In this document: positions 17,401 to 56,102 of the stretch, piece after piece
Layout of the letters: each line of letters starts with the position of its first letter
How positions within the stretch are numbered: the first letter of the stretch is position 1
Assembly: GCA_000004985.1 (NCBI GenBank)
Contig: GG738900.1
Reading direction: 5' to 3' (one strand)
From: Naegleria gruberi
Taxonomy: Eukaryota
Length of the DNA stretch: 64,000 nt
Notes under the pieces: generated by a model
Databases searched by the model: none
The model's input: only the letters and a program-made list of their open reading frames with translations
Told to the model about the DNA's origin: nothing
Position numbers and translations under genes: made by a program

Positions 17401-17471
17401 TCTTTATTTGATTAAAATCAATAAAGAAGAAGAAACCAACACTCTTGCTTATAAAGACTACATCAAACTGA

Positions 17472-28875: not shown

Positions 28876-28932
28876 ATCCTCAATATCAATATCACCAATA
28901 AAATCATTTGTCTTGTGAAAGCTCATCTCTGG

Positions 28933-32831: not shown

Positions 32832-32845
32832 ATTATATCAATAAA

Positions 32846-32914
32846 NNNNNNNNNNNNNNNNNNNNNNNNNNNNNNNNNNNNNNNNNNNNNNNNNNNNNNN
32901 NNNNNNNNNNNNNN
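32846..32914. other. Assembly gap (69 N)
   Basis: Run of N. Confidence 0.99.
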
Positions 32915-32999
32915 TGTGTTAAATAACAAAATAATACATTATAGAATTAATGTTAGTAAACTCAATAAAGATTTATAATAATTTATAGTAACATCATGA

Positions 33000-37342: not shown

Positions 37343-37432
37343 TAATTTATAATAATAAAGAATTTAATTGAAACTCTCTAGGTATCCCAACAACATCCAA
37401 ACAAAACACAAACAGATATATACCACTAACAG

Positions 37433-37778
37433 TCCATTAAGGATAAATATTCATAATGAATGTATTCCCGTGTAGTCCAATGGCTAGGATACCTGGCTTT
37501 CACCCAGGAGGTCCGGGTTCAATTCCCGGCATGGGAGAATACTTTTTAATGTTGATAAAACCAATTTTATTTGGTATTGATTAAGGAATTTGGAGAATAA
37601 TTTTTCCAACAGTTCTATTGGATTCACTCATTTTTTGAGCTTGTGAGGCTTGATCCAAACTTAGAATATGAATTGGAATGTCTTTCCATAAACCACTTTC
37701 ACTCAACCACTTTAAGATAACTGCCAATTGATCACCATCCCTTTCAGCATACAAATTTTTGGCTCTTTCACTTCCAAA
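37433..37778. repeat. Source copy of tRNA-Glu plus oxidoreductase-3'-end duplicated segment
   Basis: Matches 40901..41289 at about 97%. Confidence 0.8.
37466..37537 (+). tRNA. tRNA-Glu (anticodon UUC), copy 1
   Basis: TCCCGTG…GTCCAATGGCTAGGAT…CCTGG-CTTTCAC-CCAGG…GGTTCAATTCC…CATGGGA-G. Clean cloverleaf. Confidence 0.85.
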
Positions 37779-38621
37779 AACCTTTCCAGAAATTCCTTGA
37801 GGTGTGTGAACAATTGTAACAAATTGTGATTCTTCATCTTGTTTGAGCAATTCAATGGAATAGTATTCTTGATAGGATCCAACAAAATCCAACACTATAT
37901 CAAAGGTACCTTTCAAAGATTCCAATTCATGAGTGAGATATTCCTTTCCCTTAGTGTAATCTAACACTTGATCAGCTCCCAACTTTCTAACAAAGTCTGC
38001 ATTCTTTGCTGATGAAATGGTAACAATCTTTTCAGCATTGAAATAATTCTTGGCAAGTAAAATACCTGACATTCCAACACCACCACTTCCACCAATGATT
38101 AGAACTTGTTTTCCTCTCAAGGAGTCTTTTTGTCCACTCTTACTTGATGGATGTCTGAGGAAACATTGAAAAGCAGTCAAGAAAGTTACTGGACACGAGG
38201 CAGCAACTTGATGACTAATTGATTCTGGATTAAGAGCTGCTTGAGATTCAGAGCAGACAACATATTGACTGTATGTTCCTCTGATGTGTGTCATGTTACA
38301 ACCACAAACTGAATCACCAATCTTGAATTTGGTTACTTTGGAACCAGTGGCAACTACAATTCCACTAACTATTCGAAGGTAAGAATGAAAAATATTAAAC
38401 TTACAATCAACTCCAAGAATCGTTGGATATGAATTAATATAAAACCCATATTGTCTTACTTTACAATCTAATGGATTAACTCCAGCATATTGATTTCTAA
38501 CAAGAATGTCATCTTCATTCAATTGTGGTAAATCAAATTTATGGTCAATTACAATGTCATCAGCACTGACATTGGCAGATTTAATAATTGCAGCAGTTTG
38601 AAAGGTTGGAAGACTTGACAT
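37581..38621 (-). CDS. Zinc-type/MDR-superfamily NAD(P)-dependent oxidoreductase (quinone oxidoreductase-like), one intron ~38372..38412
   Basis: Rossmann GGSGGVG motif, MDR catalytic-domain layout, GTAAGT intron. Confidence 0.65.
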   Translation of the reverse strand: MSSLPTFQTAAIIKSANVSADDIVIDHKFDLPQLNEDDILVRNQYAGVNPLDCKVRQYGFYINSYPTILGVDCKFNIFHSYLRIVSGIVVATGSKVTKFKIGDSVCGCNMTHIRGTYSQYVVCSESQAALNPESISHQVAASCPVTFLTAFQCFLRHPSSKSGQKDSLRGKQVLIIGGSGGVGMSGILLAKNYFNAEKIVTISSAKNADFVRKLGADQVLDYTKGKEYLTHELESLKGTFDIVLDFVGSYQEYYSIELLKQDEESQFVTIVHTPQGISGKVFGSERAKNLYAERDGDQLAVILKWLSESGLWKDIPIHILSLDQASQAQKMSESNRTVGKIILQIP

Positions 38622-39009
38622 TTTAGAGATGTGTATTCTTTTTTTATGATTTGAATTTTGAATTGCTTATCCAGTTAAAAAAGTTGACTTGTTTTTATAG
38701 TGTTTTGAAAAGTGTGCGCAGCAGAAATAATGTATTCTATCGCGGTAATTAAGCAACCAATCAGAAATGGAGCGCTGATTTTGGGATATTTTGACTTTCG
38801 CAAGGTTAATTTTTGATTTTCTTGTCAAGGTTCACCATCACCAGCAAATAGCTGTATTAGTAGCTGTAGTTCTTTTACTTGCTTTTGTAAAGTTCATACT
38901 TTACAAAAAAAATGCTCAAACGGAATGAAGGAGGCCGAGTTGTGATTTTCTTGGATTTTTCTTTGGAATCAAATTTGCTTTTGCAAAAATTCAAAGACAA
39001 ACTACATCA

Positions 39010-40698
39010 TTGAAGGAATATTGTAAGAAACGTGATGAAATATTAAACAAAAGACCAGAATTTATTCCATTGGAGTTTTATCGGGATTGTCAAGTGTTGG
39101 TTAAATATCCACATTTATTGGAGAATTTGCTGATTACAACGGATAGGGAATTTATTTTGTATTTTGTTAGATCGAGGGATGATCACATTCATTCAGTTTG
39201 TAGAGCTATTTCAGATACTTTGAAATGTGATGAATTATTTATTAGACAAGCCATTCAAGCTAATTATCAAATGTTTAAAGTTCTTCTTGAAAAACGTAAT
39301 CAAGACTACAACAGAAAAAGAACAAGCAAGATACGTAGAGGTCGATTCAAAGACGAGGGAAGTGATGACTCTGGAGATGAGGATAATATATCAATTGACT
39401 GGGAGTATTTCATTAATTTGAATCCAAAAGTTCTAAGATTTGTCAAAAATAGATGGAAAGAGTTGGATAGAGAAGTAGTTTTACAAGCTTTGCGAAAAGA
39501 TATTATAGCAATTTATTCATTGCAAGCTCTTGACAGAGAAATGGCATTGTTGGTAGTTGAAACCAATCCATTGGCTTTGAAATATGAACATGGAGTTTGG
39601 CAGAATGATAAAGAAATTGTACTGAAAGCAATATCACAAAATAAGAACCTACTTGTGTATGCATGTGATTCGATCATTGAAGAAGTGTTAAGAAACAGAG
39701 AACTCATTGAATATTCTCAGGAGGATGTCATTAATTTAGTATTGAATGGTGTGAAGGAAAAGCCATCTTTATTCAATTACCTTCCCGAACATATGAAAAC
39801 AAATCATGAATTTGTTATCAAATTGGTAGAATTGGACACAAGAATATCCGAGTTCATTCCAGAATCTTTAAAACAAAACAGAGAATTTCTAATGGAACTG
39901 GTCAAATATGATAGAAATGCATTTTACAATTGTAAAGATATGGATCTGAGGGGGAGTAGACAATTTTTATTGAACGCCCTATCCACTTACAGGTTCTCAC
40001 TCTCCAGTGCTCCATCTCATCTCAAAGATGATAAGGAATTTGTAATGGAATGTTTAACTGCATATCCTGCAGACTTGGATGAAGCTTCATCTCGTTTGAG
40101 AGATGATGAACAAGTGGTAGAATTGGTTTTAAAAGAATTTAATAACGCATCAAATAGATTGAAAGATGATAAGGACTTTGTAATGAAACACATTGAAGAA
40201 TTTCCTCAAATGTATCAGTCATTGAGTCAGAGATTGAAAAGCGATAAGGAAATAATTCTAAAATGTGCATCTGGAGGTGGAGTTATTTCAAATGGTTATT
40301 TCTTTCACGACGATGACTTTGTATTAGAATTGGTGGAAAGAAATGCTCATATTGTTGAAACACTGGGAAAGATAACGCCAGAGTTTGCTAAGAAATGTAT
40401 TGAGCGAAATGGCTTTTGCTACCATTTATTGAAACAACACTCTATGGTAACAGAATCTGACGAATTGGATCAATTAGCAGCTCTTTCTCGTGGATATTTA
40501 GCTGATAAACATACTGAGGATATTAGACCAACATATGGATTTCACAAAATCAAAACTCGCACAAGCTATGAGGATAGAGAAATTGTGGATTCATGGATTA
40601 AGAAGAGATTGGAGAAGCAATATGATGGGTTATATATTTCACTCAGCTCGCCAATATTTGTAAAGGGAAAGTTTGTGAATACCCACATTAAGGGATGA
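39010..40698 (+). CDS. DUF4116-repeat protein (start codon uncertain; ORF begins with TTG)
   Basis: At least 7 tandem ~30-aa repeats of the form LKxDKEFVMxxV…. Confidence 0.5.
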   Translation: MKEYCKKRDEILNKRPEFIPLEFYRDCQVLVKYPHLLENLLITTDREFILYFVRSRDDHIHSVCRAISDTLKCDELFIRQAIQANYQMFKVLLEKRNQDYNRKRTSKIRRGRFKDEGSDDSGDEDNISIDWEYFINLNPKVLRFVKNRWKELDREVVLQALRKDIIAIYSLQALDREMALLVVETNPLALKYEHGVWQNDKEIVLKAISQNKNLLVYACDSIIEEVLRNRELIEYSQEDVINLVLNGVKEKPSLFNYLPEHMKTNHEFVIKLVELDTRISEFIPESLKQNREFLMELVKYDRNAFYNCKDMDLRGSRQFLLNALSTYRFSLSSAPSHLKDDKEFVMECLTAYPADLDEASSRLRDDEQVVELVLKEFNNASNRLKDDKDFVMKHIEEFPQMYQSLSQRLKSDKEIILKCASGGGVISNGYFFHDDDFVLELVERNAHIVETLGKITPEFAKKCIERNGFCYHLLKQHSMVTESDELDQLAALSRGYLADKHTEDIRPTYGFHKIKTRTSYEDREIVDSWIKKRLEKQYDGLYISLSSPIFVKGKFVNTHIKG

Positions 40699-40900
40699 TT
40701 ACCCATTATGTGAAACCTTACTAATTTGAATTTGTCTTTATTTTGGATAAAGTATTGAAACTAGGAAGCTCAGCAAACTTCAACACTCTTCTTTTTATAA
40801 TTTTTAAAATGTATGCAATAATGTAGCAAGTACATGATATTTATGAAATTATAATTCCAATTTTCATTATTATTAGTAATTATTCCCATTTCTTTATTTG

Positions 40901-41289
40901 TCCATTAAGGATAAATTTTCAAAATAAATGTATTCCCGTGTAGTCCAATGGCTAGGATACCTGGCTTTCACCCAGGAGGTCCGGGTTCAATTCCCGGCAT
41001 GGGAGAATACTTTTTTAATTATGGACTTTTAATATTGTTAAAAATTAATTTTATGTTACCACATGAGGTATTGAATAATTTAGAATTTGCATTAAGGAAT
41101 GTGGAGAATGATCTTTCCAACAGTTCTATTGGATTCACTCATTTTTTGAGCTTGTGAGGCTTGATCCAAACTTAGAATGTGAATTGGGATGTCTTTCCAT
41201 AAACCACTTTCACTCAACCACTTTAAGATAATTGCCAATTGATCACCATCCCTTTCAGCATACAAATTTTTGGCTCTTTCACTTCCAAA
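40901..41289. repeat. Duplicated segment: tRNA-Glu plus truncated 3' end of oxidoreductase gene
   Basis: Collinear with 37433..37778. Has a 45-bp insertion after the tRNA. Ends abruptly at 41290. Confidence 0.8.
40934..41005 (+). tRNA. tRNA-Glu (anticodon UUC), copy 2
   Basis: Identical to copy 1. Confidence 0.85.
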
Positions 41290-41301
41290 CAATTTCAACA
41301 A
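41092..41301 (-). pseudogene. Truncated copy of the oxidoreductase C-terminus (last ~65 aa)
   Basis: Translation FGSERAKNLYAERDGDQLAIILKWLSESGLWKDIPIHILSLDQASQAQKMSESNRTVGKIILHIP differs from the parent in 2 residues. No upstream exons. Confidence 0.65.
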
Positions 41302-41365
41302 AAATCTATGAGCCTTTTCTTGTCACATTAATAAAAATCTGCCATGTTGTTCAATTAACCACAAT

Positions 41366-42187
41366 TTAATAACACTCATCGTCAGGATAATCCACAATTC
41401 CATACATGAGAATATTGGAATAATCACAATTTATAACAACAGAATCCATTACTTCCTTTTCCATTTGCTTTTTCGTTTCCTCTGCTTGTTTACGATACAA
41501 TTTAGCTTTTTCTTTACCCACCTCAAAGGTTGCTACGCACATTGATTCATAATCCATGTCAGATACATGGTTACGCTCAACAAGCTTTGAGTATAGATGC
41601 TTATCAGTCCTATAGATGTATTCCACAATTTTGCTTCTACATGGTTTTGCATGTTTCGAAATATCTGTGTGGGTATCGGTTGAGATCAGATTCATGTCGT
41701 TAGATATTGGGCCAACAATTGAAAGAACTACAAACGAGGATAAATCATTGTAAAAAGCCATGTCCATAGTAAGAATCACATTCTTGTTTGTTTTCAATTC
41801 ATAGGTTGTTCTTGTAACGCTAAAACAAAATGAATACCCTTTCGAATGGATAAGAAATTCTAAATTTTTGCACATGTTGGACTTTTGGCACTCTTTCCTC
41901 TTGTAATTCAAGGTTTGGTTACACTTTGTGGTATGTTTGAGCGAAATTTGAGGCTCCTTAGAATAGGTTGTTTTTTCCTTCAGCCAGTAATTTTGTTCCA
42001 TTAAAACATATTCTGATAAATCATAAAAAGTTTCATTGTAGGATGTTTTTGATTTGAATGTAAACAGAGGAAGAAGACTTTTTTCTAACTGCTCCTTGCC
42101 CATAATAAAGTTGAATTTTGTAATGATTGCACTGTCGTGGGCAACATGATCTAATAAACAATCTTGATATACGAATCTTGTGTTCAA
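41366..42187 (-). CDS. Hypothetical 273-aa protein (orphan)
   Basis: Intact ORF. No recognisable domain. Confidence 0.35.
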   Translation of the reverse strand: MNTRFVYQDCLLDHVAHDSAIITKFNFIMGKEQLEKSLLPLFTFKSKTSYNETFYDLSEYVLMEQNYWLKEKTTYSKEPQISLKHTTKCNQTLNYKRKECQKSNMCKNLEFLIHSKGYSFCFSVTRTTYELKTNKNVILTMDMAFYNDLSSFVVLSIVGPISNDMNLISTDTHTDISKHAKPCRSKIVEYIYRTDKHLYSKLVERNHVSDMDYESMCVATFEVGKEKAKLYRKQAEETKKQMEKEVMDSVVINCDYSNILMYGIVDYPDDECY

Positions 42188-42220
42188 TGTATGATTGTTT
42201 AAAAGTTATTAAGGTAAAAA

Positions 42221-42340
42221 GACTACAGCACCACAGGTTCCCAAGTTGTCTCCAACCTCAGTACTGATGTGGCTCGACGATGCTTACCTTCTCAAATCGG
42301 ACGGGATGAGATGCATTCATCGTGATATGGCCGTAGCCAT
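42221..42340 (-). rRNA. 5S ribosomal RNA gene, copy 2 (two substitutions relative to copies 1 and 3)
   Basis: Reverse complement matches copy 1 except C>T and T>G. Shares a 21-bp 3' flank (TTTTTACCTTAATAACTTTTA) with copy 1. Confidence 0.75.
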
Positions 42341-42428
42341 TCATTTATTTAAGTTCTGAGTCATAAATCTTTAAGCAACAGTTAGGATTGTAAGGAATAT
42401 ATTTTAATCAAGATTTTGGTTTGTTCTT

Positions 42429-42508
42429 CACTATGAACATGCTTGACTCACAACGTTGATCACAGCTAAGCCATTGTGAAAATAATTGAGTCAAGCATGT
42501 TCATAGTG
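42429..42508. repeat. Perfect 22-bp inverted repeat (stem) with 36-nt loop
   Basis: cactatgaacatgcttgactca … tgagtcaagcatgttcatagtg. Each arm is followed by CAACGTTG. Confidence 0.7.
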
Positions 42509-42741
42509 ATCAACGTTGTGCAGGATGTAATAGTTAAAGTTCATACTTTGCTCAAAATGGGAAGTTACTACCCTTAATAAGACCAATTTAAAAGAAAACA
42601 TTCATGTTCAATTTAGGAACTTTTAGAATTTTGACTTATTTTATTATCATCCACAAAGAAACCATTGTGCCAGCTCTTGTTGGTGCTAAATATGCTTGAT
42701 TTGGGTTATGTAAATTTCAAAGTGCAGAACATTTGAAAAAA

Positions 42742-45700
42742 ATGCTGAAAAACAGCATAACAGTAGATTTGAGCGGTAAGGACGGAGAAGATGGTCATCA
42801 AGGCAAGAGGTAAGAGTACATACCTCAATTTTTTTGATGTTAATATGTTGCCGAATTAGTGGACGTAATGGTGAAGTGGGAAAGGTAATGTTTCTAATCT
42901 CCCTTAATCATCATAAAATCACTGTTGTAAAATAGTCAGGGAAAAGTGGACAAATATCTGCCTTAAATAATGGAAATGGAAGTCATGGAGAACCAGGAGG
43001 ACCGTAAGTATATATTGCTGGAGTGAAATTAGCCATGTGTTAATAGAGGTGGAGATGGAGAGAATGGTGGAAAGTAAGTTCTAGCTGTTATTGAGTACTT
43101 GACCTTATTTAATATTCCTTCTCAACAACAGTGGAAAAAAGGGGCAACACGCAACAGCTGGTGGAAATATTTAAGTAAAAATTGAGGGATCCAATCACAA
43201 GTTAATCACTTTGAGTGGAAGTATCAATGATTCTGTGTGTTTGAATGATGGTGCTGGACAAGTTTTGGTGTTTCTGGCGAATGGTGGAAATGGTGGAAAG
43301 TGAGTATCAGTGTAGCTTTGATTTGAAGTGCTTACAATTATAGAGGTGGACGTGGAGGACCAGGTGGTAAGTTGCTGAATAGCAAACACGACTGAGAATG
43401 TAATTCATTCAGGAATGGGGGGAGTCGGCGGAAAAGGAGGAACTGGAGCAAGAGGTGGTAATGGTAGCTCTGGAGGTAATGGTATGAATGGTCAAGATGG
43501 TGGCAATGGAGGAAAGTAAGTATTGAATGATTGAGACAATTTTGAAACTAATAATTATTTCAGTGGTGGCGTGTAAGGAGAAATACAAGTTTAGTTAGTT
43601 GATTGAAATTTAGTGCTGGAAAAGGAGGAAATGGTGGAGAGTAAGTTTTAATAATTGGTTGGAAATTCATATGTGCGTTTAACAAGTGGAGGGGAAGGAT
43701 CCAAGTAGGTTTTTCAATTATTACAACTATTTTAATGTGGAATAGTGGTGGAAATGGTGGAAATGGAGGAAGTATTCTTATTGAAACAAATAATGCTTCC
43801 TTGTTGAAGTTTGTCAAAGCAGAAAGTCAACCAGGTAAAGGAGGAATGGATGGAAAAGGTGGCTCTGCAGGAAGTGCAGGTAAAGGAGGAGAGAAAGGAC
43901 CTGGAGGACCTGGTGGTAGAGGTGGTGCAGGAGGAGCTGCAATGGGAAGAGGAATAATCAATACAAGATCTGGATCCAATGGAAGGAATGGATCAGATGG
44001 AAAATCTGGACAAAAAGGTCAAGAAGGAAGGAAGGGAAATCCAGGACACACTGGACAAGATGGTACACCAGGAAATTTAACCATTAGAGTCTATGATCCT
44101 CTTACTAATCAACTTGTGGAGGAAGGTCATTCAATTTATAATTTGGTGGTAACAACATTCGAATTGTGTGGCTATGAAAATGATGGAATTTTTGAACCAG
44201 ATGAAAATGTCTTTATTACCAACGTTGGTGTTAAGAATCAAGGAGGATTGACATTACCATCAGGTTCAGTTCTCTCATTTCCAAGCACTCAAACATTTAT
44301 TTCAAACGGTGAATGTTATGTTTTGGAGAAGAATTTGGCACCAGGCGAATTCTTTTCAATTCCTTTCCAATTTTATGGTCGAGTTGTTGGAAGGAAACAA
44401 AAACAATTTGGCCCTTTCAAGTCAACAATTAGCATTCAATCAAGTGCTTGTCTGTTAACTTCTCCATTTAGTGAAGGTTTTGTTAAGAAGGAATATCCAG
44501 TTCAGTATCCAATAGTATTGGAAAGTGTGAAAGTTCCTAAAAGTTTGGGAAGAAATGAAAAAGGAACAGTTACAATCACCGTAAAGAATCAATCTCTTAT
44601 CAATTATGGCTCTTCATTGGGTGATGGATACAGAATTAAGTTTTGTTTAACTCTGGATTCAACGTATATCATTCTAACAGAAACAAGCGCAACTAATATA
44701 TTTGAAGAGGAAATTCCCTTCATCCAAGCAGGAATGTCATACTCTAGAACGTTTAACATTGAAACAACTATCAATGCCCAATTCTATGAAACCATTCCAA
44801 TTCAAACAAATTTATTTTTGAGAGGACATCCTATTGAGGAATCATTGAACTCCATTCGTATTCAACCAACATACATTCCAACTAATCTCGATTCTCCAAA
44901 TCCTTTCGATGTGCTCTTCTTCTCAGATAAGCACATTAATAGGCAGGAATTTTCAAATTACATGTCCCTGCTTGGTAGAATAGGATTGAACGTGAATGTA
45001 TGGGATATTGAGAGATACGGTGGACTATCTTATAATAATAAGGGTAAGAGACATACAAAATCATGGATTGATGGTGGTTATGAAGGTAAAATGATAATAA
45101 TGCCTCTTATGGAACAAGGCTCTGAAAAACAAATGGCTGTCTCAGATATTTTCCAACATTTCAGGGGCAAAAATTGGCAAAATGATTCATCAAAACCAAA
45201 CAATGGATCTATCGTTTTTATCGGTAACCCTTCTGATTCATTCAAAAGTCAACTCTTTGGCGAATGCTCAGCCCAACAAATCCCAGAATCTGAACTAAGA
45301 GAAATGTTTCTGCTTTCTGAACCGAATGAAAGCTCAATGCTTAAGAAAGCAACAGAGTTTATTAAATCCCTCAATAAGACACATCCATCAAGGGTTTATA
45401 GAACTGAAAATGTGTTATTCAATCCTCAAAAAGATGGCTCATTATCAAAAACTTTATTAGGATCAGCTGATTATAAGGAATTACCCTTAAGCACTGCTGA
45501 TGCTTTATATTTCATTCCAACAAAGAGTGGAAACTCTTCTGGATTCATGAACGGAGGTATTACACTTCAAATTGAAAGCAAATCAAATATTGGAAAATTG
45601 CTTAACACTATTCTATATTCACTTCCTGTTGAGAAAAAATTGGAATTGTTAAGGAAACCAACCGAATGGCTTTCCAAAGTTCAAATTAAGGATGAAAATG

Positions 45701-45960
45701 GTGATTTACTTAATTATGTAACTTGTATTATCTTTGCTCTAAGCTTTAATCTGTTTTTGGAAATAATTTACAACGATGAAAATGGAAGATTTTCAACGGG
45801 TATTGAAGCAGATTTTGAAGCACATTTTGATGAATATAAGAATCATCCTCAATCCAAACAAATTGTTGAAACTCTATATTTGGTATTAAAGAAACTTGGC
45901 AGTGAATTAAAATGGAGAGGAACATCGGTACCTAGCATTAAGGAAAGGAAAAACCTATGA
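42742..45960 (+). CDS. Collagen-like / Gly-rich repeat protein with C-terminal globular region; ~10 micro-exons then a 2.2 kb terminal exon
   Basis: Exon 1 encodes MLKNSITVDLSGKDGEDGHQGKRG… (GXY). Repeated GGNGGNGG(K) and GXY tracts (GRNGSDGKSGQKGQEGRKGNPGHTGQDGTPG) in tiny exons are separated by 50-90 nt GTAAGT..AG introns. Exon boundaries are approximate. Confidence 0.5.
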
Positions 45961-47060
45961 AACTGTTTACAAAGATTTGAAAAGCATTCTCCTCAAGATT
46001 TCATCGGAACCTGCTGAATTTTTGAAGAAGGAGACCAAGACTCGTATTGGTTCTATTTCAACGGATCACTTCTTATGTCAGTTGGAGAATTTCACTAGAC
46101 CACTATTGGAAAGTTATCATTTGGAAATGGAGAAGGAACTTAGTGTGGATGGAGGAGATCATGGACATTCTCATTGACATCCTCATTGAAAAATATCACT
46201 GGAATGAAGTTGTATTATTACTCAGTTTGGTGAACTGTGCAATAAAAAAACAACTTTTAAATTCATAAAACTTTTATTGTCGTTTAAGTACCTTACTCAA
46301 CCAGATACAATAATAATGCAATTTCAAATGGAGCCAGTGCGACATCTCTAATTTTACTTGGAATTCAAATTATTCTTCAAGATAGCCCTCCACACTTGAA
46401 TAAATATTCTCTCTCACGACAGTATCAGTAACTTCTTCAAATCCTTCAATATTATTTTCCTCATCATCATCGTCACTATATTTACTAGGATTCACTTGTC
46501 CCTCTCCAGCTTTACGAACCAATTTTTGTACTTCGTAGATAATGGCATAAATTCCATCTTCATCATTACTCTTTGGTTATTTATTCTCTTTGGTTAATCT
46601 TTTCATTACATTGCTGATTTGTGTGCTAACTTCATCATCACCTGCATCAGTATACATTCCATACATTTTTTTCTTTTGTGTGGCTGGTATGTTAAAACAA
46701 TGATGAACTTAAACATCCTAAAGGTTTACATTCGGTGAACATAAACAATTCTAGAAAAAACGAAATTTTGTAATGGCATTCTGAGTTCACATTCAATTTT
46801 TATCAGTTTCCATTCAATACAACTTTCCATCTATACCTCTAAATAGACTGGTTAATTGTTTTACTTCTGATGTAACATTTACAATGACACATAATCAAGC
46901 AAATCTTAGAGATAGATATTCGTAGAATTAGTTGTTACTGTGAAAAACAACCAACTTCCCAAACTAATCTTCGGAGTTGTTTTTGGAATTTTGTCAACTC
47001 CTCAACTTCTTTAAAAAGAAGGACATTATGATAATCTTATACAAGAAAAAAACAACAAAG

Positions 47061-50000
47061 ATGAATCACAAAGGTTTTGCATTGCTTCTTGTGTTAACAT
47101 GTCTGTTGTTTATTACCATTCATCCAATAATGACTAGTGAACAAATTATTCGAAACCTTGCCGGTCAAGGAATATGTGATGGTCATTTATCAACAAATGC
47201 ACCAGTCAATCCCAGTGATTGTGCCTTTTTGGATGAAGAAATGTTAATTGCAGATGCCACTAATCATAGAATTCGTAAAGTTTTCACAAATGGAACAATT
47301 GTAACCATAGCTGGAAATGGATTTGCTGGTTACAATGGAGATGGTTTAGATGCAACAAGTGCTCAATTGAACAATCCAGTTGGCATTTATGTTGATACCA
47401 ATAGTAGAGAAGTTTACATTGCTGATTCTAATAATCATCGAATTCGTAAAATATTACAGAATGGAAAAATTACAACAATTGCTGGAACAGGAATTGCTGG
47501 CTACAATGGAGATGACAAAAGTGCAGACAGTGCCCAATTGAACACCCCAAGTGGAATTGTTATTGATCCAAATAATGGAGAAATTTTCATTTCAGATTCT
47601 AAAAATCACAGAATTCGTAAAATTTTACAAAATGGTAAAATTACAACAATTGCTGGAACTGGAGAAGCTGGTTACAATGGAGATGGAATTGAGGCAAAGT
47701 TTGCAAAATTGTATCTACCAAACGGAATTGATTTGTATGAGAAAGAGTTGTTTATTGCTGATCAAAATAATCATAGAATTCGTAAAGTTTCGCTTGATAC
47801 TGGACTAATTTCAACTATTGCTGGAAATGGAAATTCAGGTTACAATGGAGATAACATTCTGGCAACAAACTGTAAATTGAGTTTACCTGCAGGAGTTAGA
47901 TACGATTCGAAAAGAAGAGAAGTTTACATTGCTGATTCCAACAACCAAAGAATTCGTAAAATATTAGAAAGTGGAATAATTGTAACAATTGCTGGAACAG
48001 GAGAAGCTGGATTTGATAATATTCTCAATGCTACCCAATCAAAGGTTAATCATCCTAATAGTGTTACTTTGAACGAATTAGGGGAAGTTTTCATTTCAGA
48101 TTCACAAAATTATCGAGTACGAAAGATTACAACAGAAAGTGGAATAATTACAACAATTGTAGGAAATGGATTTGAAAAGTATTGCACAGATTTAGCTAGT
48201 AACACACCATTGTTTTATCCTCGTGGTATAATTTCGAATGAAAATGGAGAATTTTTCTATGCCGATTCTAGCAACCATTGTATTCGAAAAATTCTGACAA
48301 ATGGTACAATTCTTACAATTGCTGGAACAGGTACTAAGGGTTACAATGGAGATGGAATTGAAGCAACAAGTGCTCAATTAAATACTCCTCACGATGTTGC
48401 ATTAAACTTGGCAACTGGCGAGATTTACATTGCAGATACGGAAAATAATAGAATAAGAAAAATTTTGACAAATGGTACAATTACAACAATTGCAGGAACT
48501 GGAGATTATGGATACAATGGAGATGGAATCATGGCTGTAGATGCATGGTTGAATGAACCGAGTGGTGTTGAAATTGATTCCACTAGCGGTGAAGTTTTCT
48601 TTTCTGATACTGAAAATTTCAGAATTCGAAGAGTTTCGAATAGTGGAATAATTACAACAATTGCAGGAACTGGAAAATCAAAATTTAATGGAGATGGTAT
48701 GGCAACAGACACGAATCTTGCTACTCCAACTGAAATTCAATACGTTCCAAGTACTACTGAAATTTATTTTGCTGATTCTGGAAATAATAGAATTAGAAAA
48801 TTTACTATAAATGGAATGATGACAACTATTGCTGGAACAAGCACAAGTGGATATAATGGTGATAATATGCCTGCAACACGTGCTTGGTTGAATTTTCCAG
48901 TTGGTGTAACATACGATCCAAAAACCAATCAAGTTTATATTGCCGATTTATCTAATCACAGAATTAGAAAAATTCTGACAAATGGTACAATTACAACCAT
49001 TGCTGGAACAGGAAAAGGAGGTTATAATGGTAATAACTTGACAGCCTTATCCACTCAAGTGAATGGACCTCATGGAATGATACTACAACCGAATGGTGAT
49101 GTAATCTTTTCAGATAGCACCAATAATGTCATTAGAATTATCAGATCTGATCAAATTTATTGTAATGGAACATTGTCAAGTGATTTGAATGTTTGTAATG
49201 GTCGTGGTTGGTGCATGGAGAGTGGAAAATGCTCTTGTCAAGACGGATGGATTGGTGATTATTGTTCAGAGCCAACATGTGAAAATGATTGTTATGGACA
49301 TGGAAGATGTGTTTCGAATAATACATGTGAATGTGAATATGGTTGGGATGGAAACTCTCACTGTTCTCAATTTTCATGTGGTGGATTGAATAATTGTAAC
49401 TCGAATGGTTTATGTGTTTCGAATAATACTTGCAGTTGCCAATCAGGATGGGCTGGAACTGATTGTTCTCAATTTACTTGTTCTGGCGCTAGCAATTGTT
49501 CAGATCATGGTTCCTGCATTTCGAATAATACTTGTCATTGCAATTCTGGTTGGAAAGGAAATGCCCAATGTTCCCAATTTACTTGTGAACTCACAAATGA
49601 TTGTTCGAATCATGGCTTGTGTGTTTCGAATAATACTTGTCAATGTAGTTCAGGTTGGAATTTCATTAATTGTTCCATCAAAGAATGTCTCATTTCAATT
49701 GTTTCAGGTTCAAGAGAATTGATATGTGGAAATGATAATTCTTCTGGTCAACTGAAAACATTTAGCAGAATAACGACTCCAGTAATTGAAACAACAAGTT
49801 TCGAATTGAATGAAAATCAACATGTAAATGTTGATATTGGATCAAGAATAATGAATTTGGATCTATCTCAAGACAAGTATTTCATAACCTCTTCATGGAC
49901 CAATTCGAATAATTTATTCTTTACCAATGTTTCCAATTTACTAATTCAAAACTCAGGTTCATCACTTATTCAAGCAGAACTTTCAACAAAAATCAAGTAT

Positions 50001-50789
50001 TCTTTCACGCATCATTCAAATCTTGATATCATGTCATTTAACTATAATTGTTTAAGATTTGACATCCTGTCACATTTGTGGACAAATCAATCCATAACAA
50101 CAAGCATTTCTCCACAAACTAACTCCATTACATGCACAACTATATTCATTTCTTCAGTAGTTGTTCAAAGAACTTTAATCCCTTCACCATCAATCTCACC
50201 AAAACACTCATCAAATCCATTTCCATCAATTTCACATGAAAATTCAATTCCACTCCCAAGCGATGAGACAATTACATTGAATATCCAACCTGGAGAATCA
50301 ATTCTCTATCAAATAACTCTTCCATCCATGAAAAGACTTTCACTTTCGTGTAAAACAATTTCAGGAAGAGATTTAAATTTGTTTATTGGAGAAAATTTCA
50401 AACCGTCTTATGAAATGTACTCAAAAGTTATGAATTCTAATCAGGAAATGGATTTTGAAAATTGGAAGTCGATATACCAGGTGTTTTACATTCGAGTTCA
50501 AGGTTTGAAAGATTCAACAACTCAATTCACTATAAGAGCTTCAATTAGTCAACTGAGACAAGTGAATTCTTCGAGTGGAGCAAGAAATGATAATTACACC
50601 ATTGGATTAATCGTCTCAAGTGTTATTTCACTTCTATTATTAATCATTACCATCCTAACTGTTCTTAGTTGTGTTTTCTATTGGAGAAAGAAACGTAAAC
50701 TTATGGAAGAAACCAGAACGAAACTACTTTCAACTCCTAATTCGCTTCAGTATTCACCTCACCAACCGTATGAAATGGAGGAAGCATAA
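47061..50789 (+). CDS. Type I membrane protein: signal peptide, ~12 NHL beta-propeller repeats, ~5 tenascin-type EGF-like repeats, TM, short tail
   Basis: Repeated …IADSNNHRIRKI…TIAGTGxAGYNGDG…AxLNxPxG… units. Cys-rich CxxxGxCxCxxGWxGxxC modules. TM IGLIVSSVISLLLLIITILTVLSCVFYW followed by RKKRK. Confidence 0.7.
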   Translation: MNHKGFALLLVLTCLLFITIHPIMTSEQIIRNLAGQGICDGHLSTNAPVNPSDCAFLDEEMLIADATNHRIRKVFTNGTIVTIAGNGFAGYNGDGLDATSAQLNNPVGIYVDTNSREVYIADSNNHRIRKILQNGKITTIAGTGIAGYNGDDKSADSAQLNTPSGIVIDPNNGEIFISDSKNHRIRKILQNGKITTIAGTGEAGYNGDGIEAKFAKLYLPNGIDLYEKELFIADQNNHRIRKVSLDTGLISTIAGNGNSGYNGDNILATNCKLSLPAGVRYDSKRREVYIADSNNQRIRKILESGIIVTIAGTGEAGFDNILNATQSKVNHPNSVTLNELGEVFISDSQNYRVRKITTESGIITTIVGNGFEKYCTDLASNTPLFYPRGIISNENGEFFYADSSNHCIRKILTNGTILTIAGTGTKGYNGDGIEATSAQLNTPHDVALNLATGEIYIADTENNRIRKILTNGTITTIAGTGDYGYNGDGIMAVDAWLNEPSGVEIDSTSGEVFFSDTENFRIRRVSNSGIITTIAGTGKSKFNGDGMATDTNLATPTEIQYVPSTTEIYFADSGNNRIRKFTINGMMTTIAGTSTSGYNGDNMPATRAWLNFPVGVTYDPKTNQVYIADLSNHRIRKILTNGTITTIAGTGKGGYNGNNLTALSTQVNGPHGMILQPNGDVIFSDSTNNVIRIIRSDQIYCNGTLSSDLNVCNGRGWCMESGKCSCQDGWIGDYCSEPTCENDCYGHGRCVSNNTCECEYGWDGNSHCSQFSCGGLNNCNSNGLCVSNNTCSCQSGWAGTDCSQFTCSGASNCSDHGSCISNNTCHCNSGWKGNAQCSQFTCELTNDCSNHGLCVSNNTCQCSSGWNFINCSIKECLISIVSGSRELICGNDNSSGQLKTFSRITTPVIETTSFELNENQHVNVDIGSRIMNLDLSQDKYFITSSWTNSNNLFFTNVSNLLIQNSGSSLIQAELSTKIKYSFTHHSNLDIMSFNYNCLRFDILSHLWTNQSITTSISPQTNSITCTTIFISSVVVQRTLIPSPSISPKHSSNPFPSISHENSIPLPSDETITLNIQPGESILYQITLPSMKRLSLSCKTISGRDLNLFIGENFKPSYEMYSKVMNSNQEMDFENWKSIYQVFYIRVQGLKDSTTQFTIRASISQLRQVNSSSGARNDNYTIGLIVSSVISLLLLIITILTVLSCVFYWRKKRKLMEETRTKLLSTPNSLQYSPHQPYEMEEA

Positions 50790-50843
50790 ACTATTGAACT
50801 GTTTTATAAACACAAATAGAATTTATTGTAAAAGTTTAAAAAA

Positions 50844-53309
50844 ATGTCTCAACACCAAGTTGATTTTACCCTCGCGGATCTTCCCACTGAAATTCATCAT
50901 ACAATTTTTTACTACCTCGATTATGTTCGTGATATTTGTTGTGATCAGTTATTGTATGTTCCGATGATTGAAATGCCATCAACATTGGAAGAATATGAAC
51001 GGAATTGTATTGATCATGGTGAACAGGAATTTATTGATTTTGATCATCCTAGTCGCGTGCCTTTCTTTTTAGCCTGTCAATCACTGCTGAAATCTGTAAA
51101 ATCATTCAGACCAATAGTTTTGAATTTAACACTACCATCAACAGAAAGGGGGCTCTGCAGATATTATTTGGACAAGTTATATATTGAAACATTTCAAAGA
51201 ACTCCTTGGTTTAGAAGAGCAAAACCTGCATATCATTTTAGTAGTTATGATTGGAATGACGCATTTAGAGCACTATTTGAAAGGATGAAAAAGCTTTGTG
51301 GTGGTCATCCTTTGTTTAAAGTGGAATTTGTATCAGTTGCTTGTATTGTTGGCAGAAACTATACCTCTTTTGAATATGCTTATCATGGAGGATTTAATTT
51401 ACACAAACTTATGGATCTAGTACCTAACCTTAAATATGCACTATTCGATTTCAACCCTTCATTAGTTTTATATGAAAGAAGTGAATCTTTGACCATTATT
51501 TATGCATCAAAGTCAGATTATTACCATTCAGCATTGGGACAAAAAAAGAACATTTACTTCTCATCCTTTGATTATGAAAGAAACCCAATAGTACCAATTG
51601 AAAAATTGAAAGGAGTATTTCCAAACAATTATCCAACAAATATTGAAATATTCCTCTACAATAGTATAGTATCAAATAATTTTAAGGAGGCAAAATATAT
51701 TATCAACAATTTTACTCTTAATGCTAATATATTTTCCTATATATGGAATACCAAATCTTACATGACACGAGAACTCAACTATTATAATCTTACACAAATT
51801 ATGGACATATTACATTTTTTTTACAAAAATTATCCATCTTTTAGAGTATTTAGAATTCCAATAGACAATATAGTATGCTTAAAACTAATTGTATCACAGC
51901 CATTTGTAGATATTCATGTTGGTAAGAATATTACCAAATTATTCCTAGAGAGAATGACTACTAAAGATGTTCAGGTACTATCTAGAGATTATAATGTTGA
52001 TTTTTCCAAACTTGGTAATTTCAAATTCTCTGCTAATTGTTTTTTAGAAACAAATTTACAAATAGAAAATACTTGTGATATTTTTGGTGTATCCACGGCT
52101 ATGTTTAGATTGGAAAGAGGCAGTAACATTATTGAGAAGGATAAGTTTGGAAATAATATCCTTCATTATATATTCTTGAATAGGAGAGGAAACAATTTAT
52201 CGCAATCTCTTTCAAAGTTTTCACAAGAGGAAATTAAATTACTTGGAAAAGAGCCAAACATTTTCGGTATCACTGCAAATGAACTAGCGCTTATTAAGGG
52301 ATGTGACTTTAAAATTGAAAGTTTTAATAAGAAATTCTGCTACGAGTCCTTTGGTAGAACCTGTGGCAGTTCAGATTTGCCTAGAATGTTACTATTTGAT
52401 GGATTAATGGTTAATGAACAAATCTATTGTGTATTTATGAATAATTTACAAACCAGTAGATATGATTATGATCAATATAGAGATATCAACTTTAGAGATG
52501 AAAATGGAAAGCATTTGGTTCACTATTCCCCAAATTGTTTTAGTGAAAACACAGAGTGTTTGGGTTTAGAATTGAAAGATATTATCTTTTGCAAAGATAA
52601 TAATCAAACAATGCCCATCCAAACATTTTACAATAGTTATCTTGTGGCTTTGGACAAGTTAGGACAAATTGAGAATATGCCCAAGTTGAACTTTTTTTCA
52701 TATACTGATAACTTTGGAATGTGTCGATATTTATATTTATTGATGAATTCCTATATTAATACTCAGTTATTGGTATCAGAAGCTGATACTATTGGATTTG
52801 ATTACTCTTCAGGTCAACCTGAACTTGTATCATTGTGTTCTCATTATTTGGATGGACTCTATCATTTTTCAATTGAAAAAAGCCCTTTGAAACAATTGAA
52901 AGGTATTAGATACTTTGGAAGTGTTGATGGAGATGATTTCTCACATTACGTATTGAGATATTATTTGGATTACATTAACAAAAACCCTACTTACTATCTA
53001 GACACTTCAACCCTCAAGGTTCTTATTGCTAGAGGACTAAAGTTTGATGTTGTTAGAAACTCACAAGGGCAAACAGCTTTTGATTTAATTGATCACTTAA
53101 CAGGGACGACACAATTGAAACATATGAAGAAAGTATGTAGAAAAGGCCGTACCACAAAATCCAAGGCATTACCCAAATTTACAATCAAACACAATCCAAT
53201 TCCAAAAGATGTTTTAATAGAGGATTCTGAAACAACACTTGTTGTTAAATCACAAAATGTTGCACCATTCCGTATTAGAATCAAACGCAGTTTAACATTT
53301 CACAAATAG
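50844..53309 (+). CDS. Hypothetical 821-aa protein with N-terminal F-box-like motif
   Basis: LADLPTEIHHTIFYYLD resembles an F-box. The remainder is unassigned, with possible ankyrin-like repeats. Confidence 0.4.
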   Translation: MSQHQVDFTLADLPTEIHHTIFYYLDYVRDICCDQLLYVPMIEMPSTLEEYERNCIDHGEQEFIDFDHPSRVPFFLACQSLLKSVKSFRPIVLNLTLPSTERGLCRYYLDKLYIETFQRTPWFRRAKPAYHFSSYDWNDAFRALFERMKKLCGGHPLFKVEFVSVACIVGRNYTSFEYAYHGGFNLHKLMDLVPNLKYALFDFNPSLVLYERSESLTIIYASKSDYYHSALGQKKNIYFSSFDYERNPIVPIEKLKGVFPNNYPTNIEIFLYNSIVSNNFKEAKYIINNFTLNANIFSYIWNTKSYMTRELNYYNLTQIMDILHFFYKNYPSFRVFRIPIDNIVCLKLIVSQPFVDIHVGKNITKLFLERMTTKDVQVLSRDYNVDFSKLGNFKFSANCFLETNLQIENTCDIFGVSTAMFRLERGSNIIEKDKFGNNILHYIFLNRRGNNLSQSLSKFSQEEIKLLGKEPNIFGITANELALIKGCDFKIESFNKKFCYESFGRTCGSSDLPRMLLFDGLMVNEQIYCVFMNNLQTSRYDYDQYRDINFRDENGKHLVHYSPNCFSENTECLGLELKDIIFCKDNNQTMPIQTFYNSYLVALDKLGQIENMPKLNFFSYTDNFGMCRYLYLLMNSYINTQLLVSEADTIGFDYSSGQPELVSLCSHYLDGLYHFSIEKSPLKQLKGIRYFGSVDGDDFSHYVLRYYLDYINKNPTYYLDTSTLKVLIARGLKFDVVRNSQGQTAFDLIDHLTGTTQLKHMKKVCRKGRTTKSKALPKFTIKHNPIPKDVLIEDSETTLVVKSQNVAPFRIRIKRSLTFHK

Positions 53310-53716
53310 CCTAGAAAATAATAAAATAAAGAAGTTCAGCAGAAACATCATATTGATAGATATCCAACAGGTGGTCTTACATCAGTATTAGCTGTTGATG
53401 AAAACAAAATGGGTTGGATTAACATTTAATTTGGCAGTTGACATTATTTCAATTAAGTTTTCTATTGGTTGAAAATGACGGGAAGCCTGCCAGGAATATG
53501 ACGACAATCCCGCTACAGTCTTTGACTGTATGAACAGTGAAGGCAACGAAGACAGAATCTTGTTGGTTCAGGTTTTGTTTGAAGAAATTGTTAAAGTTGA
53601 TCAACCTCATATTTATTGAACATTTGTCATGTTGAAATGCATGATGCAAATTTTGGTTTCTCATATTCTGATCAATTCTAAATTGAAACTTCATTATTTA
53701 CAATTTACTGAATTAT

Positions 53717-54004
53717 TTACAAGTTTTTAGATTTGGTAATTTTCTTAGTTGTGGTAGTAGATTGTTTAGCTCTCTTTTCAATTGAATTTTTAGAAGATCT
53801 TTTCACTGAAATTTGTTTACCATTTAAATTTGCATGATGATAATCAATATTATTACGATGTCTAGTTCCACTTATAATATTTGAAGTATCAATATCAAAT
53901 AATGGTAATCTTTTAGATAAATCAATTGGTTTAGATCTTGTCCATTCTGTTTTTGTTGGAATTCTATCTTCGGAAGAATGTGATGAAGTATTTCTAGCTG
54001 GCAT
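53717..54004 (-). CDS. Small Ser/Lys-rich basic protein, paralogue A
   Basis: Shares core NIISGTRHRNNIDY with the divergently oriented ORF at 54228..54443. Confidence 0.35.
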   Translation of the reverse strand: MPARNTSSHSSEDRIPTKTEWTRSKPIDLSKRLPLFDIDTSNIISGTRHRNNIDYHHANLNGKQISVKRSSKNSIEKRAKQSTTTTKKITKSKNL

Positions 54005-54227
54005 TTTGCTCTTAGTTCTTGTTATTAGGTTGTTTTGTTTTGTTGTGGAAATTTCATCATCCTATACCAGTTATCTATTTATTTCCATATTGATTTCCAC
54101 TAATTTTGTGATTCCGATTTTTAGTGGATTTTCCACTCATCACAAGAATTTGAATTTTTCTATTAATATTAAGGAAATTTAATGAAAATCAACAAACAAA
54201 AGAAAATAACAAAATAACAATAAGAAA

Positions 54228-54443
54228 ATGGTCTCAACAAGAAGAAATATGTATAATTCCTCCAATAATACTTCACAATTTAATTCCGAAATTTCTCTGG
54301 ATAATATTATTGGTGGAACAAGAAGAAGAAATTTAATTGATTACAAAACATTGAATTCTATTGGAAGTGAAACAAGCAAAACTTCCAAATCTCAATCACA
54401 TAACACTTTAGAAATGAGAAACAAACAATTCAAAATGTGGTAA
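54228..54443 (+). CDS. Small Ser/Lys-rich basic protein, paralogue B
   Basis: Core NIIGGTRRRNLIDY. Head-to-head with paralogue A, about 220 bp apart. Confidence 0.35.
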   Translation: MVSTRRNMYNSSNNTSQFNSEISLDNIIGGTRRRNLIDYKTLNSIGSETSKTSKSQSHNTLEMRNKQFKMW

Positions 54444-55243
54444 TCTCCATTTAACTCAAAATTTTGTAAACCTAGGCATTCATTGTAAATAAACCCAAAA
54501 TATTGATATAAAGGAATACTCTCCTAATCAAATAAATTGTCTTATTCAACAATATCGTTCCGTTTCAATAGCATAATAACAAAGAGTTGCATTCCTCCTC
54601 TTAATTTCCTTATCGTTAACTTTTCCATTATGAATCGTTTTTCCAAAGTAACTAGTTCTGCCAGTTTTAAAATGTAAGCAGTGTATTCAATTTTTAAATT
54701 GCAATAATGTACATGTTGTTTATCCTCATTGAAACATAATGAAATGAATTCCTTTTTGAAAAGAAGATTTTGGGATTCCTATTTACTTTGATATCACAAC
54801 ATCCATACATGCATGTTGAATGAGAGGGTGTTTACATGTCCGTGTAGTTTTTTTCATCATTGGCGGTTCCAAAAGTTACAACGAGTTCCCATCTAATTAT
54901 TTTAAGCAACACGATCAAGAGGGTTAAATGAGAATATTGTAAACTAATATCTCCCTTTTCCCTATGTGTTGTTATGAGTTCTATTCGATAGTTAGATGAT
55001 ACTGAGGTGTTACCATTCCTCTTACTGACTTCTCAATAAGGTTGTTCCACAAATGTTCAACCAATTCAATTCTCAGAAAACCATTGAACTCTATTAAACT
55101 CCATTGTAAATATTGTAATCTTACTCAGTCAAAATTACTATAAATTCAAATTGACAATTCTTTTTGATAAAAACAAAACAAACAAACAATAATATTCAAT
55201 ATTGAATTGTATCTGAAAACTCCTCAACAAACTTAAACTCAAA

Positions 55244-55780
55244 ATGACTCAACAAACTCACGAAGAATTATTCAATGAAAACATGTGTGGAAGTGGTTTG
55301 GCATTCAAGAAGGTAGTTTGTGAATTATTCAACAATCGTATTGTCCCTGCGACCAAGAATCTTCAACAAGTCAACCCAAAGATGATCATCTTGTTGGATT
55401 GGGCTTCTCTTGCTGCATTGCCAAGTGAAACCAAATACAAGTATGGTGATAGATTTGTTGAAGATACCCTGTTGAATAATTGCATCAAATTCTTAATTGA
55501 AAGTCCAAGATTGAGCAATATGAGTGAAATTGCCAAGGTTTTCATCAAGGATCCTGATTGTAAGGAAGTTTTTATGGGATTGGAAAAGTTGATTTTCAGA
55601 GTTGTACACAATGCTGATAGTAAGGAATCTTCAGGTTTCCTTGGATATTCTTACAAGGTTAATGGTACTGATTTGGTTGTCACTTTGGATTGCAATTTGA
55701 CTCTTGTTATGAAGGTTGCCAATGAAAGACAAAGCCCAACTGCTGATTCAGAAGCTAAAAAGTTGATTAATGCTTTCTAA
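55244..55780 (+). CDS. Hypothetical 178-aa protein with strong expression-type codon bias
   Basis: Intact ORF. Prefers ttc, aag, cca and ggt codons. No family recognised. Confidence 0.45.
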   Translation: MTQQTHEELFNENMCGSGLAFKKVVCELFNNRIVPATKNLQQVNPKMIILLDWASLAALPSETKYKYGDRFVEDTLLNNCIKFLIESPRLSNMSEIAKVFIKDPDCKEVFMGLEKLIFRVVHNADSKESSGFLGYSYKVNGTDLVVTLDCNLTLVMKVANERQSPTADSEAKKLINAF

Positions 55781-55856
55781 TTTTTTAAATGGCAGTACTC
55801 TATGAATCAACATTGATTTACCTAATAAAAAACCTTTATTTTTGAATTGTCAAAAA

Positions 55857-55976
55857 GACTACAGCACCACAGGTTCCCAAGTTGTCTCCAACCTCAGTAC
55901 TGATGTGGCTCGACGATGCTTAACTTCTCAAATCGGACGGGATGAGGTGCATTCATCGTGATATGGCCGTAGCCAT
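55857..55976 (-). rRNA. 5S ribosomal RNA gene, copy 3 (identical to copy 1)
   Basis: Reverse complement is identical to 22656..22775. Has its own flanks and a T-run terminator. Confidence 0.8.
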
Positions 55977-56102
55977 TCATTTTCTTAATTTGTGATATAT
56001 AAAACATCTTCTTAAAATCTTAATGTTGAATAAGTCAATGAATTCTTTGTTCGCACACAGAATAGTAACTTTCAAATTCCGCTAAAAATTAGAACAAAAA
56101 AA

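Follow-up and report, generated by a model that had tools for sequence, protein, structure and literature searches.

Probable DNA-level duplication of a tRNA-Glu(UUC) gene together with the end of a neighbouring oxidoreductase gene in Naegleria

A stretch of 64,000 nucleotides from Naegleria gruberi (assembly GCA_000004985.1, contig GG738900.1; hereafter the window) carries two tRNA-Glu(UUC) genes, out of a total of four tRNA genes that ARAGORN finds in it, and both are joined to the same 3' end of an oxidoreductase gene. At the first site (copy A), a complete gene for an MDR oxidoreductase converges on the tRNA, and its last 198 nt (37581-37778) form the duplicated coding part. At the second (copy B), what accompanies the tRNA is a stub of that gene. 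An open reading frame (ORF) for a DUF4116-repeat protein lies between the two, and a gene of 273 codons follows copy B on the right (Table 1). Comparison of the window with itself by blastn showed that the block at 37432-37778 (A) recurs as a direct repeat at 40900-41289 (B) with an E value of 4e-132, and returned no third copy anywhere in the 64 kb. The alignment of the two blocks comprises 390 columns, 43 of which are gap columns, and 334 of the 347 aligned positions are identical; repeat finding, MAFFT, gapped local alignment and self-blastn established this block concordantly. A preliminary description of the window had reported that tRNA-Glu(UUC) was duplicated with the end of the neighbouring gene. 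ARAGORN, Rfam and blastn agree on this, and the coordinates then given were right to within 1 nt. An alignment of the two segments had been named beforehand as the check to make, and in it the similarity does not stop at the tRNA but takes in 198 bp of coding sequence (CDS): collinear similarity spans flank, tRNA, spacer and CDS, that is, it passes beyond any single functional element.

Both tRNA-Glu genes score far above the Rfam gathering score for tRNA of 29 bits (Table 1), and they are identical at 74/74 nt. An A-box-like TAGTCCAATGG and a B-box-like GGTTCAATTCC can be read in each, and a terminator T run (T5 in copy A, T6 in copy B) lies no more than 10 nt from the 3' end. Leader and trailer differ between A and B, by which the two pre-tRNAs would be distinguishable. 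The copies have an A/T-rich 5' flank in common, within which the stretch GGATAAATATT may be an upstream element for RNA polymerase III (Pol III). Judged by these features, copy B appears to keep all that a Pol III gene needs, namely the 5' flank, the A and B boxes and the T-run terminator. A second tRNA-Glu(UUC) gene is the sole likely functional product of the duplication, both copies probably being transcribed. An origin of the copy B tRNA as a Pol III retrogene is excluded, because the copy takes in 33 bp on the 5' side of the tRNA and extends 240-280 bp past the T-run terminator.

The coding part of the block, consisting of the stop codon and the last 65 codons, has 6 mismatches between the copies and no indel. 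In the parent gene, Pfam matches GroES-like N-terminal and Rossmann-fold C-terminal domains within an ORF of 346 amino acids (aa). Homologues in Naegleria cover 99% of the protein, with identities of 54% in N. gruberi, 48% in N. lovaniensis and 43% in N. fowleri; in JGI metagenomes the protein gave one weak, unrelated match only. The unspliced ORF stays open through the short intron, which adds 12 spurious residues (a CKFNIFHSYLRI-type insert) that are missing from the Naegleria homologues. The duplicated part is the genuine C-terminus of the parent MDR protein, because in the alignment it falls on the C-terminal ends of the homologues from N. gruberi and N. lovaniensis. The stub of copy B lacks 268 residues at the N-terminus, among them the nucleotide-binding motif GGSGGVG, and has neither the catalytic nor the Rossmann domain; what is left matches positions 73-134 only of ADH_zinc_N_2, at 25.4 bits, under the Pfam cut-off of 27 bits. 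The ORF in which it lies (41092-41301) runs 4 codons past the homology by chance, and the first ATG is 16 codons from the end of the ORF. Because 268 residues are missing and no ATG precedes the last 16 codons, the stub cannot encode an enzyme and is a non-functional pseudogene fragment. When both proteins were used as tblastn queries (E <= 5), no other MDR or DUF4116 remnant was found elsewhere in the window. The abrupt end inside coding sequence, the 65-codon C-terminal stub and the second intact tRNA-Glu that had been described were thus all seen again.

Table 1. Positions of the duplicated block, its component parts and the surrounding features in the 64-kb window
Feature	Position	Strand	Remarks
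Copy A, 5' flank of tRNA	37432..37464	+	33 bp, left block edge; 30/33 identical to 40900-40932
Copy A, tRNA-Glu(UUC)	37465..37538	+	ARAGORN; Rfam RF00005, 67 bits
Copy A, spacer from tRNA to MDR stop codon	37539..37580	.	42 bp; T-run terminator, and MDR AATAAA on - strand
Parent MDR gene (zinc-type alcohol dehydrogenase/quinone oxidoreductase-like)	37581..38621	-	Pfam ADH_N, ADH_zinc_N, ADH_zinc_N_2
MDR intron	38369..38404	-	36 nt, in-frame, GTAAGT...AG; outside the copied part
DUF4116-repeat protein ORF, between the copies	39010..40698	+	Pfam DUF4116, E 4.8e-55, 8 repeats
Copy B, 5' flank of tRNA	40900..40932	+	33 bp, left edge of duplicate; 3 mismatches to copy A
Copy B, tRNA-Glu(UUC)	40933..41006	+	ARAGORN; Rfam 67 bits; T6 run downstream
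Copy B, spacer	41007..41091	.	85 bp; 5 indels and 4 mismatches to copy A
Copy B, MDR pseudogene stub	41092..41289	-	Stop codon and last 65 codons; 6 differences from parent
Sequence predicted for a site B without the block (hypothetical empty site)		+	...CCCATTTC[TTTATTT]CAATTTCAAC...
273-codon gene, right of copy B	41366..42187	-	No Pfam domain; family so far mainly Naegleria
5S rRNA gene beside the 273-codon gene	42220..42338	-	Rfam RF00001, 98.5 bits
Dispersed 5S rRNA genes (n=3)	22658-22776, 42220-42338, 55856-55974	+, -, -	Rfam
tRNA-Arg(UCU) pair, one per copy of the 7.8-kb repeat	8178-8251, 16255-16328	-	ARAGORN, Rfam
Lineage-specific non-syntenic segment, 18.7 kb	37343..56030	.	Holds the whole duplication; left bound tRNA-Glu A, right bound 5S gene 55856-55974

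The edges of the block are sharp. Similarity falls to background left of 37432/40900 and again right of 37778/41289, and homology is not seen past the right edge, where 12/24 nt (50%) are identical, a level indistinguishable from the A/T-rich background. Reading of the sequence revealed microhomology at neither junction. Within the block the copies diverge most visibly in the spacer: the 43 extra bp of copy B are spread over five indels, several of which resemble imperfect local tandem repeats, and the AATAAA derived from the MDR gene has decayed to CATAAAAT. The unit of the direct repeat (37432-40899) is 3468 bp long and consists of tRNA-Glu A, the MDR gene and the DUF4116 ORF, both ends of this cassette being intergenic. 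Copy B sits in intergenic sequence on which the DUF4116 gene and the next gene converge with their 3' ends. No run of N occurs in 32915-64000, so that both copies and everything between them lie in one gap-free stretch of the assembly. This bears on the suspicion that copy B is an assembly artefact, either a chimeric contig or a misplaced allelic variant of block A. The window is part of a draft scaffold and contains five N runs, and a 7.8-kb repeat at some distance from the block abuts a 50-N gap in the manner typical of false haplotype duplication. Yet besides lying in gap-free sequence, copy B is set apart by 13 substitutions and 5 indels of its own and is flanked by unique sequence between two complete genes, where an allelic copy would share the flanks of A; an artefact is accordingly extremely unlikely.

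We conclude that the two blocks are very probably the outcome of a local segmental duplication at the DNA level, in a Naegleria nuclear genome, that gave an intact tRNA gene and a dead stub, since the homology is collinear, direct and sharp-ended, the tRNAs are intact and identical, and no transposon ORFs were found. We also counted in its favour that the region is dynamic, with a non-syntenic segment of 18.7 kb and a second direct repeat of ~7.8 kb that includes a tRNA-Arg in the same window. This confidence covers duplication at the DNA level in general and does not extend to the particular scenario of whole-gene duplication considered below. A stretch starting 33 bp upstream of tRNA-Glu(UUC) would have been copied in direct orientation 3.47 kb downstream and would have landed in the 3'-3' intergenic region between the DUF4116 gene and the next gene, the oxidoreductase sequence being carried along only as the neighbour of the tRNA. 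A different DNA-level route would be ectopic gene conversion, in which a tRNA-Glu already present at site B suffered a break that was repaired from copy A, synthesis ran on into the MDR 3' end, and end-joining followed. Conversion would explain the anchoring at a tRNA, which would supply the homology for strand invasion, as well as the one end in unrelated sequence. However, the 33-bp 5' flank also ends sharply, making both junctions non-homologous, and conversion would reset all site classes equally, leaving the excess of synonymous over non-synonymous change unexplained. We therefore consider it very unlikely.

The substitutions between the copies are unevenly distributed among site classes. 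Synonymous sites differ at 4/38.2 (divergence 0.105) and aligned non-coding, non-tRNA sites at 7/75 (0.093), whereas only 2 of 156.8 non-synonymous sites differ (0.013). The ratio of non-synonymous to synonymous divergence (pN/pS) of the stub against its parent is thus 0.12, with 5/6 of the coding changes at third codon positions, and all five indels (43 bp in total) fall in the spacer, with none in the 198-bp CDS. With constraint on the parent alone and a stub neutral throughout, a pairwise pN/pS of ~0.55 would be expected. Under this model the one-sided probability of two or fewer non-synonymous changes among 13 substitutions is ~0.04, and by our calculation from the site counts a long-constrained stub is favoured over a fragment that was dead on arrival by a likelihood ratio of ~5-10. 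The low pN/pS and the lack of indels in the CDS suggest a past function of the stub, and hint that it stayed functional for a while after duplication and was truncated later.

This pattern could be accounted for if the whole MDR gene, or the whole 3468-bp cassette of tRNA-Glu, MDR and DUF4116 in tandem, was duplicated and subsequently truncated. In the order of events that we infer, which includes a past function for copy B, purifying selection would have acted on both MDR copies over much of their subsequent history, until a later deletion or rearrangement took away everything right of 41289. Tandem duplication of the cassette would fit neatly, since both of its ends are intergenic. We prefer this scenario among the DNA-level routes but put it forward tentatively, as one that could well be correct but that we stop short of calling probable. 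Several points weigh against it. It takes two events rather than one, and the window contains neither an N-terminal remnant of MDR nor a second copy of DUF4116. Thirteen substitutions underlie the selection signal, and the data had already been seen when the test was chosen. The indel rates of an A/T-rich spacer and of coding sequence are not comparable. The comparison of A with B is pairwise, which leaves the changes unpolarised, and the junctions of copy B are known from one assembly; exact-protein look-ups of the ORFs beside the two copies turned up no independent contig.

The simpler account is that ~347 bp were copied in a single event and inserted 3.1 kb downstream, the stub being dead on arrival and neutral ever since. 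The route would be double-strand-break repair with templated synthesis, or a template switch during replication, and the account is in that sense a variant of the DNA-level reading. Template switching had been raised in the preliminary description; it is one possible route at the DNA level, though not one favoured by the substitution pattern. Being a single event, insertion of this kind is the most parsimonious course; both edges are sharp, nothing else of MDR or DUF4116 is present downstream, and insertion here, between the 3' ends of two genes, does no harm. Nevertheless, the observed pN/pS is well below the value expected of a fragment that never functioned, some 8-9 non-synonymous changes and some indels would be expected at ~10% neutral divergence where 2 and 0 are seen, and neither junction shows microhomology. 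We regard single-event insertion as possible if somewhat doubtful and, given how weak the statistics against it are, it stays a strong rival to duplication of a longer unit.

We weighed in addition an RNA-mediated origin, in which a 5'-truncated MDR cDNA with a 3' untranslated region (UTR) running antisense through tRNA-Glu would have been inserted by a reverse transcriptase of the long interspersed nuclear element (LINE) type, with the tRNA as passenger. The + strand around copy B reads CCATTTC-TTTATTT-[block]-CAATTTC, which looks like a 7-nt target-site duplication (6/7 identical) with a short A-tail. In simulation such a pattern occurred in only 0.06-0.15% of random site pairs from the window under a strict definition; this signature was, however, defined post hoc, and 4-6% of random sites show it under a relaxed definition. 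The machinery exists in the genus. Locus L001 of N. lovaniensis encodes at 11994-16407 a 1432-aa ORF with Exo_endo_phos and RVT_1 domains (LINE-type), 3 kb from the MDR homologue, and non-long-terminal-repeat (non-LTR) retrotransposons with an apurinic/apyrimidinic endonuclease (APE) and a reverse transcriptase (RT) are therefore present in Naegleria genomes; LINEs amount to 0.25% of the genome (PMC6125883).

The polyadenylation signals, on the other hand, do not fit a retrocopy. Direct RNA sequencing of N. gruberi showed AAUAAA to be the principal poly(A) signal, with cleavage 15-20 nt further on, and gave a median 3'UTR of 39 nt (PMC11529991). The parent MDR gene has an AATAAA at 37566-37571 on the - strand, 10 nt after its stop codon, and from this together with the cleavage spacing in N. 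gruberi (PMC11529991) the MDR mRNA is predicted to end near 37546-37551, a point within the spacer that does not reach the tRNA and stays ~110 nt away from the block edge at 37432. The end of the copy would thus mismatch the parental poly(A) site, and neither AATAAA nor ATTAAA occurs within 40 nt of the block end at 37432. Furthermore, the 'tail' TTTATTT measures only 7 nt and, read on the - strand, contains an AATAAA (40893-40898), which plausibly serves as the poly(A) signal of the 273-codon gene. The sole intron of MDR lies outside the copied part. With the parental signal predicting an end short of the block, and the supposed tail being a hexamer signal, we judge that there is very little likelihood of a retrocopy. 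In sum, copy B resembles LINE-derived processed pseudogenes in comprising a CDS 3' end and downstream sequence framed by a short A-rich stretch and a 6/7 repeat, but unlike them it misses the predicted parental poly(A) site, and its A-stretch of 7 nt is an AATAAA hexamer.

The preliminary description had further proposed that the duplication might be a footprint of retroelements that target tRNA genes, as in dictyostelids. Targeting of tRNA genes by TRE5, TRE3 and DGLT-A is a property of dictyostelids. In the window, PP4R3, the left neighbour of the block, is 68% identical to its counterpart in N. lovaniensis, 58% to that of Willaertia magna and 37% to that of Acrasis kona. The region from 26.7 to 37.3 kb, with the order Copine, three unnamed genes, OST3/OST6, ribosomal S10 and PP4R3, matches N. 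lovaniensis contig PYSW02000027 and a Logan-assembled Naegleria relative in gene order, and collinearity returns at 56.0-61.2 kb (UQ_con, DUF1681, adenylate kinase). Since closest proteins and gene order both point to Naegleria, the host is evidently a member of this genus (Heterolobosea) and not a dictyostelid, and TRE/DGLT targeting does not apply to it. A tRNA gene at the edge of the duplicated, rearranged stretch, the feature shared with dictyostelid TRE5-A, TRE3 and DGLT-A, is the only point in favour of such a footprint. Against it, besides the distance between Amoebozoa and Heterolobosea, the 18.7-kb segment contains no ORF for RT, endonuclease or integrase, no LTR and no element remnant; in particular no element sequence or poly(A) remnant stands beside either tRNA, the sequence adjoining both tRNAs is unique or genic, and the DNA inserted is host DNA from 3.5 kb away. 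Pfam scans of ORFs in the 37-56 kb interval gave no domain of a reverse transcriptase, an integrase or a transposase, and repeat searches found no terminal repeats or other hallmarks of transposition. The earlier statement that no transposon ORF is present therefore stands for the main ORFs of 37-56 kb. The interpretation as a whole survives in part: the segmental duplication is upheld, while the dictyostelid framing is not, and we give a retroelement footprint virtually no credence.

DNA-level duplication also agrees with what is known of tRNA genes. They turn over by local duplication and deletion, and local copying of DNA has been given as the cause of an excess of pairs of tRNA genes (tDNAs) (Bermudez-Santana et al. 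2010, PMC2888827); the number reported for N. gruberi is 924 tDNAs (PMC2888827). As in those cases, the window has identical tRNA genes for the same isoacceptor a few kb apart, in direct orientation and with non-tRNA flanks copied. It differs in that a passenger piece of coding sequence gives the exact extent of the unit, and the substitution pattern hints at an originally longer copy. The stub likewise resembles dead-on-arrival partial pseudogenes in being a C-terminal fragment with an abrupt breakpoint within the CDS, without a start codon and without catalytic and nucleotide-binding domains, while its pN/pS and freedom from indels suggest, if weakly, a departure from the expectation for a fragment that was never functional. 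Truncated passenger pseudogenes at the edges of segmental duplications are commonplace. The duplication is hence another instance of the known growth of tDNA numbers by local duplication, involving no new mechanism and no member of a transposon family, and taken alone this one further gain in tRNA copy number with a truncated passenger matters little. Its value is that the passenger coding fragment gives the exact unit that was copied and identifies the tRNA as having been copied as DNA with its flanks rather than as a Pol III retrogene, and that the block belongs to a lineage-specific segment with a Pol III gene at either end, in a genus with high and poorly explained numbers of tDNAs.

That segment interrupts an otherwise conserved gene order. 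In two other Naegleria genomes, N. lovaniensis and the Logan-assembled relative, PP4R3 has a UCH gene as its direct neighbour, and UQ_con comes next; UCH sequence is absent from the whole window. The segment holds in order tRNA-Glu A, MDR, DUF4116, tRNA-Glu B with the stub, the 273-codon gene, a 5S gene, a DUF7932/collagen-like protein, a teneurin-like NHL/EGF protein, two unnamed ORFs and the 5S gene at 55856-55974, after which UQ_con follows. The MDR locus of N. lovaniensis has no tRNA, and its neighbours differ from those in the window. For yeasts, tRNA genes have been found associated with synteny breakpoints (Gordon, Byrne & Wolfe 2009, as cited in PMC2888827). The present segment is similar in starting at tRNA-Glu A and ending at a 5S gene; it differs in being a single locus with two boundaries, which is no statistical association, and in involving 5S as well.

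Pol III genes are numerous here: the 64-kb window has seven, whereas ARAGORN and Rfam gave no tRNA or 5S gene in the loci L001, L004 and L005, which cover 55 kb from N. lovaniensis and a related Naegleria. This suggests that the density of Pol III genes is very different between Naegleria lineages. All four tRNA genes of the window sit inside local duplications. The two tRNA-Arg genes are carried by the ~7.8-kb direct repeat (1706-9444 and 9694-17531, ~97% identity; also 9400-9613 and 19680-19921), which in addition carries pieces of a P4-ATPase gene. Its copies are parted exactly by a 50-N gap (9643-9692), and a 2.2-kb run of N (3935-6129) lies inside copy 1; it may reflect a genuine tandem duplication or, around the gap, a false haplotype duplication. 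The tRNA-Arg genes differ by one base of the D arm (GATACAGC and GATAGAGC), with Rfam scores of 59.6 bits for the first and 65.2 bits for the second, and the first may have a weakened D stem. Among the three 5S genes, all of which have ATGAAT immediately upstream, the copy at 42 kb carries two substitutions; what it has in common with the copy at 22 kb continues for ~17 nt past the T-run terminator (ACCTTAATAACTTTTAA), implying that these two were copied as DNA with flanking sequence. It is conceivable, though on balance unlikely, that Pol III genes act in this Naegleria lineage as hot spots of rearrangement and as passengers of small DNA cassettes. If this were true across the genome, repeated DNA-level copying of short blocks that combine a Pol III gene with its neighbour would explain the ~900 tDNAs of N. 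gruberi-type genomes.

The teneurin-like protein (46977-50789) has 1270 aa with EGF repeats and with NHL repeats, the latter showing a DNA periodicity of 171 nt at 47196-49099, and it adjoins a 741-aa protein (43735-45960) with a glycine-rich, collagen-like N-terminus and a DUF7932 domain. The 273-codon gene has 29 homologues, the best of which, N. gruberi XP_002668719, is 81% identical and has the same C-terminal end. On the strand that it shares with the stub, its stop codon comes 77 nt before the stub, and the stub, being placed between this stop codon and the likely poly(A) signal of the gene, may now lie within the 3'UTR of that gene. A chimeric gene in which the stub would be the terminal exon of the ORF at 41366-42187 was considered and rejected: the C-terminus of that ORF matches that of the N. 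gruberi homologue, and the stub is in a different frame and has no usable ATG.

Two further observations concern the window at large. AATAAA stands at, or no more than ~25 nt after, several stop codons (37354-37359, 32827-32832, 28897-28902 and 53320-53325 on the + strand and 37566-37571 on the - strand), which fits the very short, AAUAAA-directed 3'UTRs of N. gruberi (PMC11529991). Finally, a metagenome contig in the European Nucleotide Archive (ERZ929261, PRJEB11402) is 98-99% identical to 30840-33618 and spans the run of N at 32846-32914, for which it supplies real sequence of ~122 bp, indicating that the same or a very close Naegleria was present in that sample.

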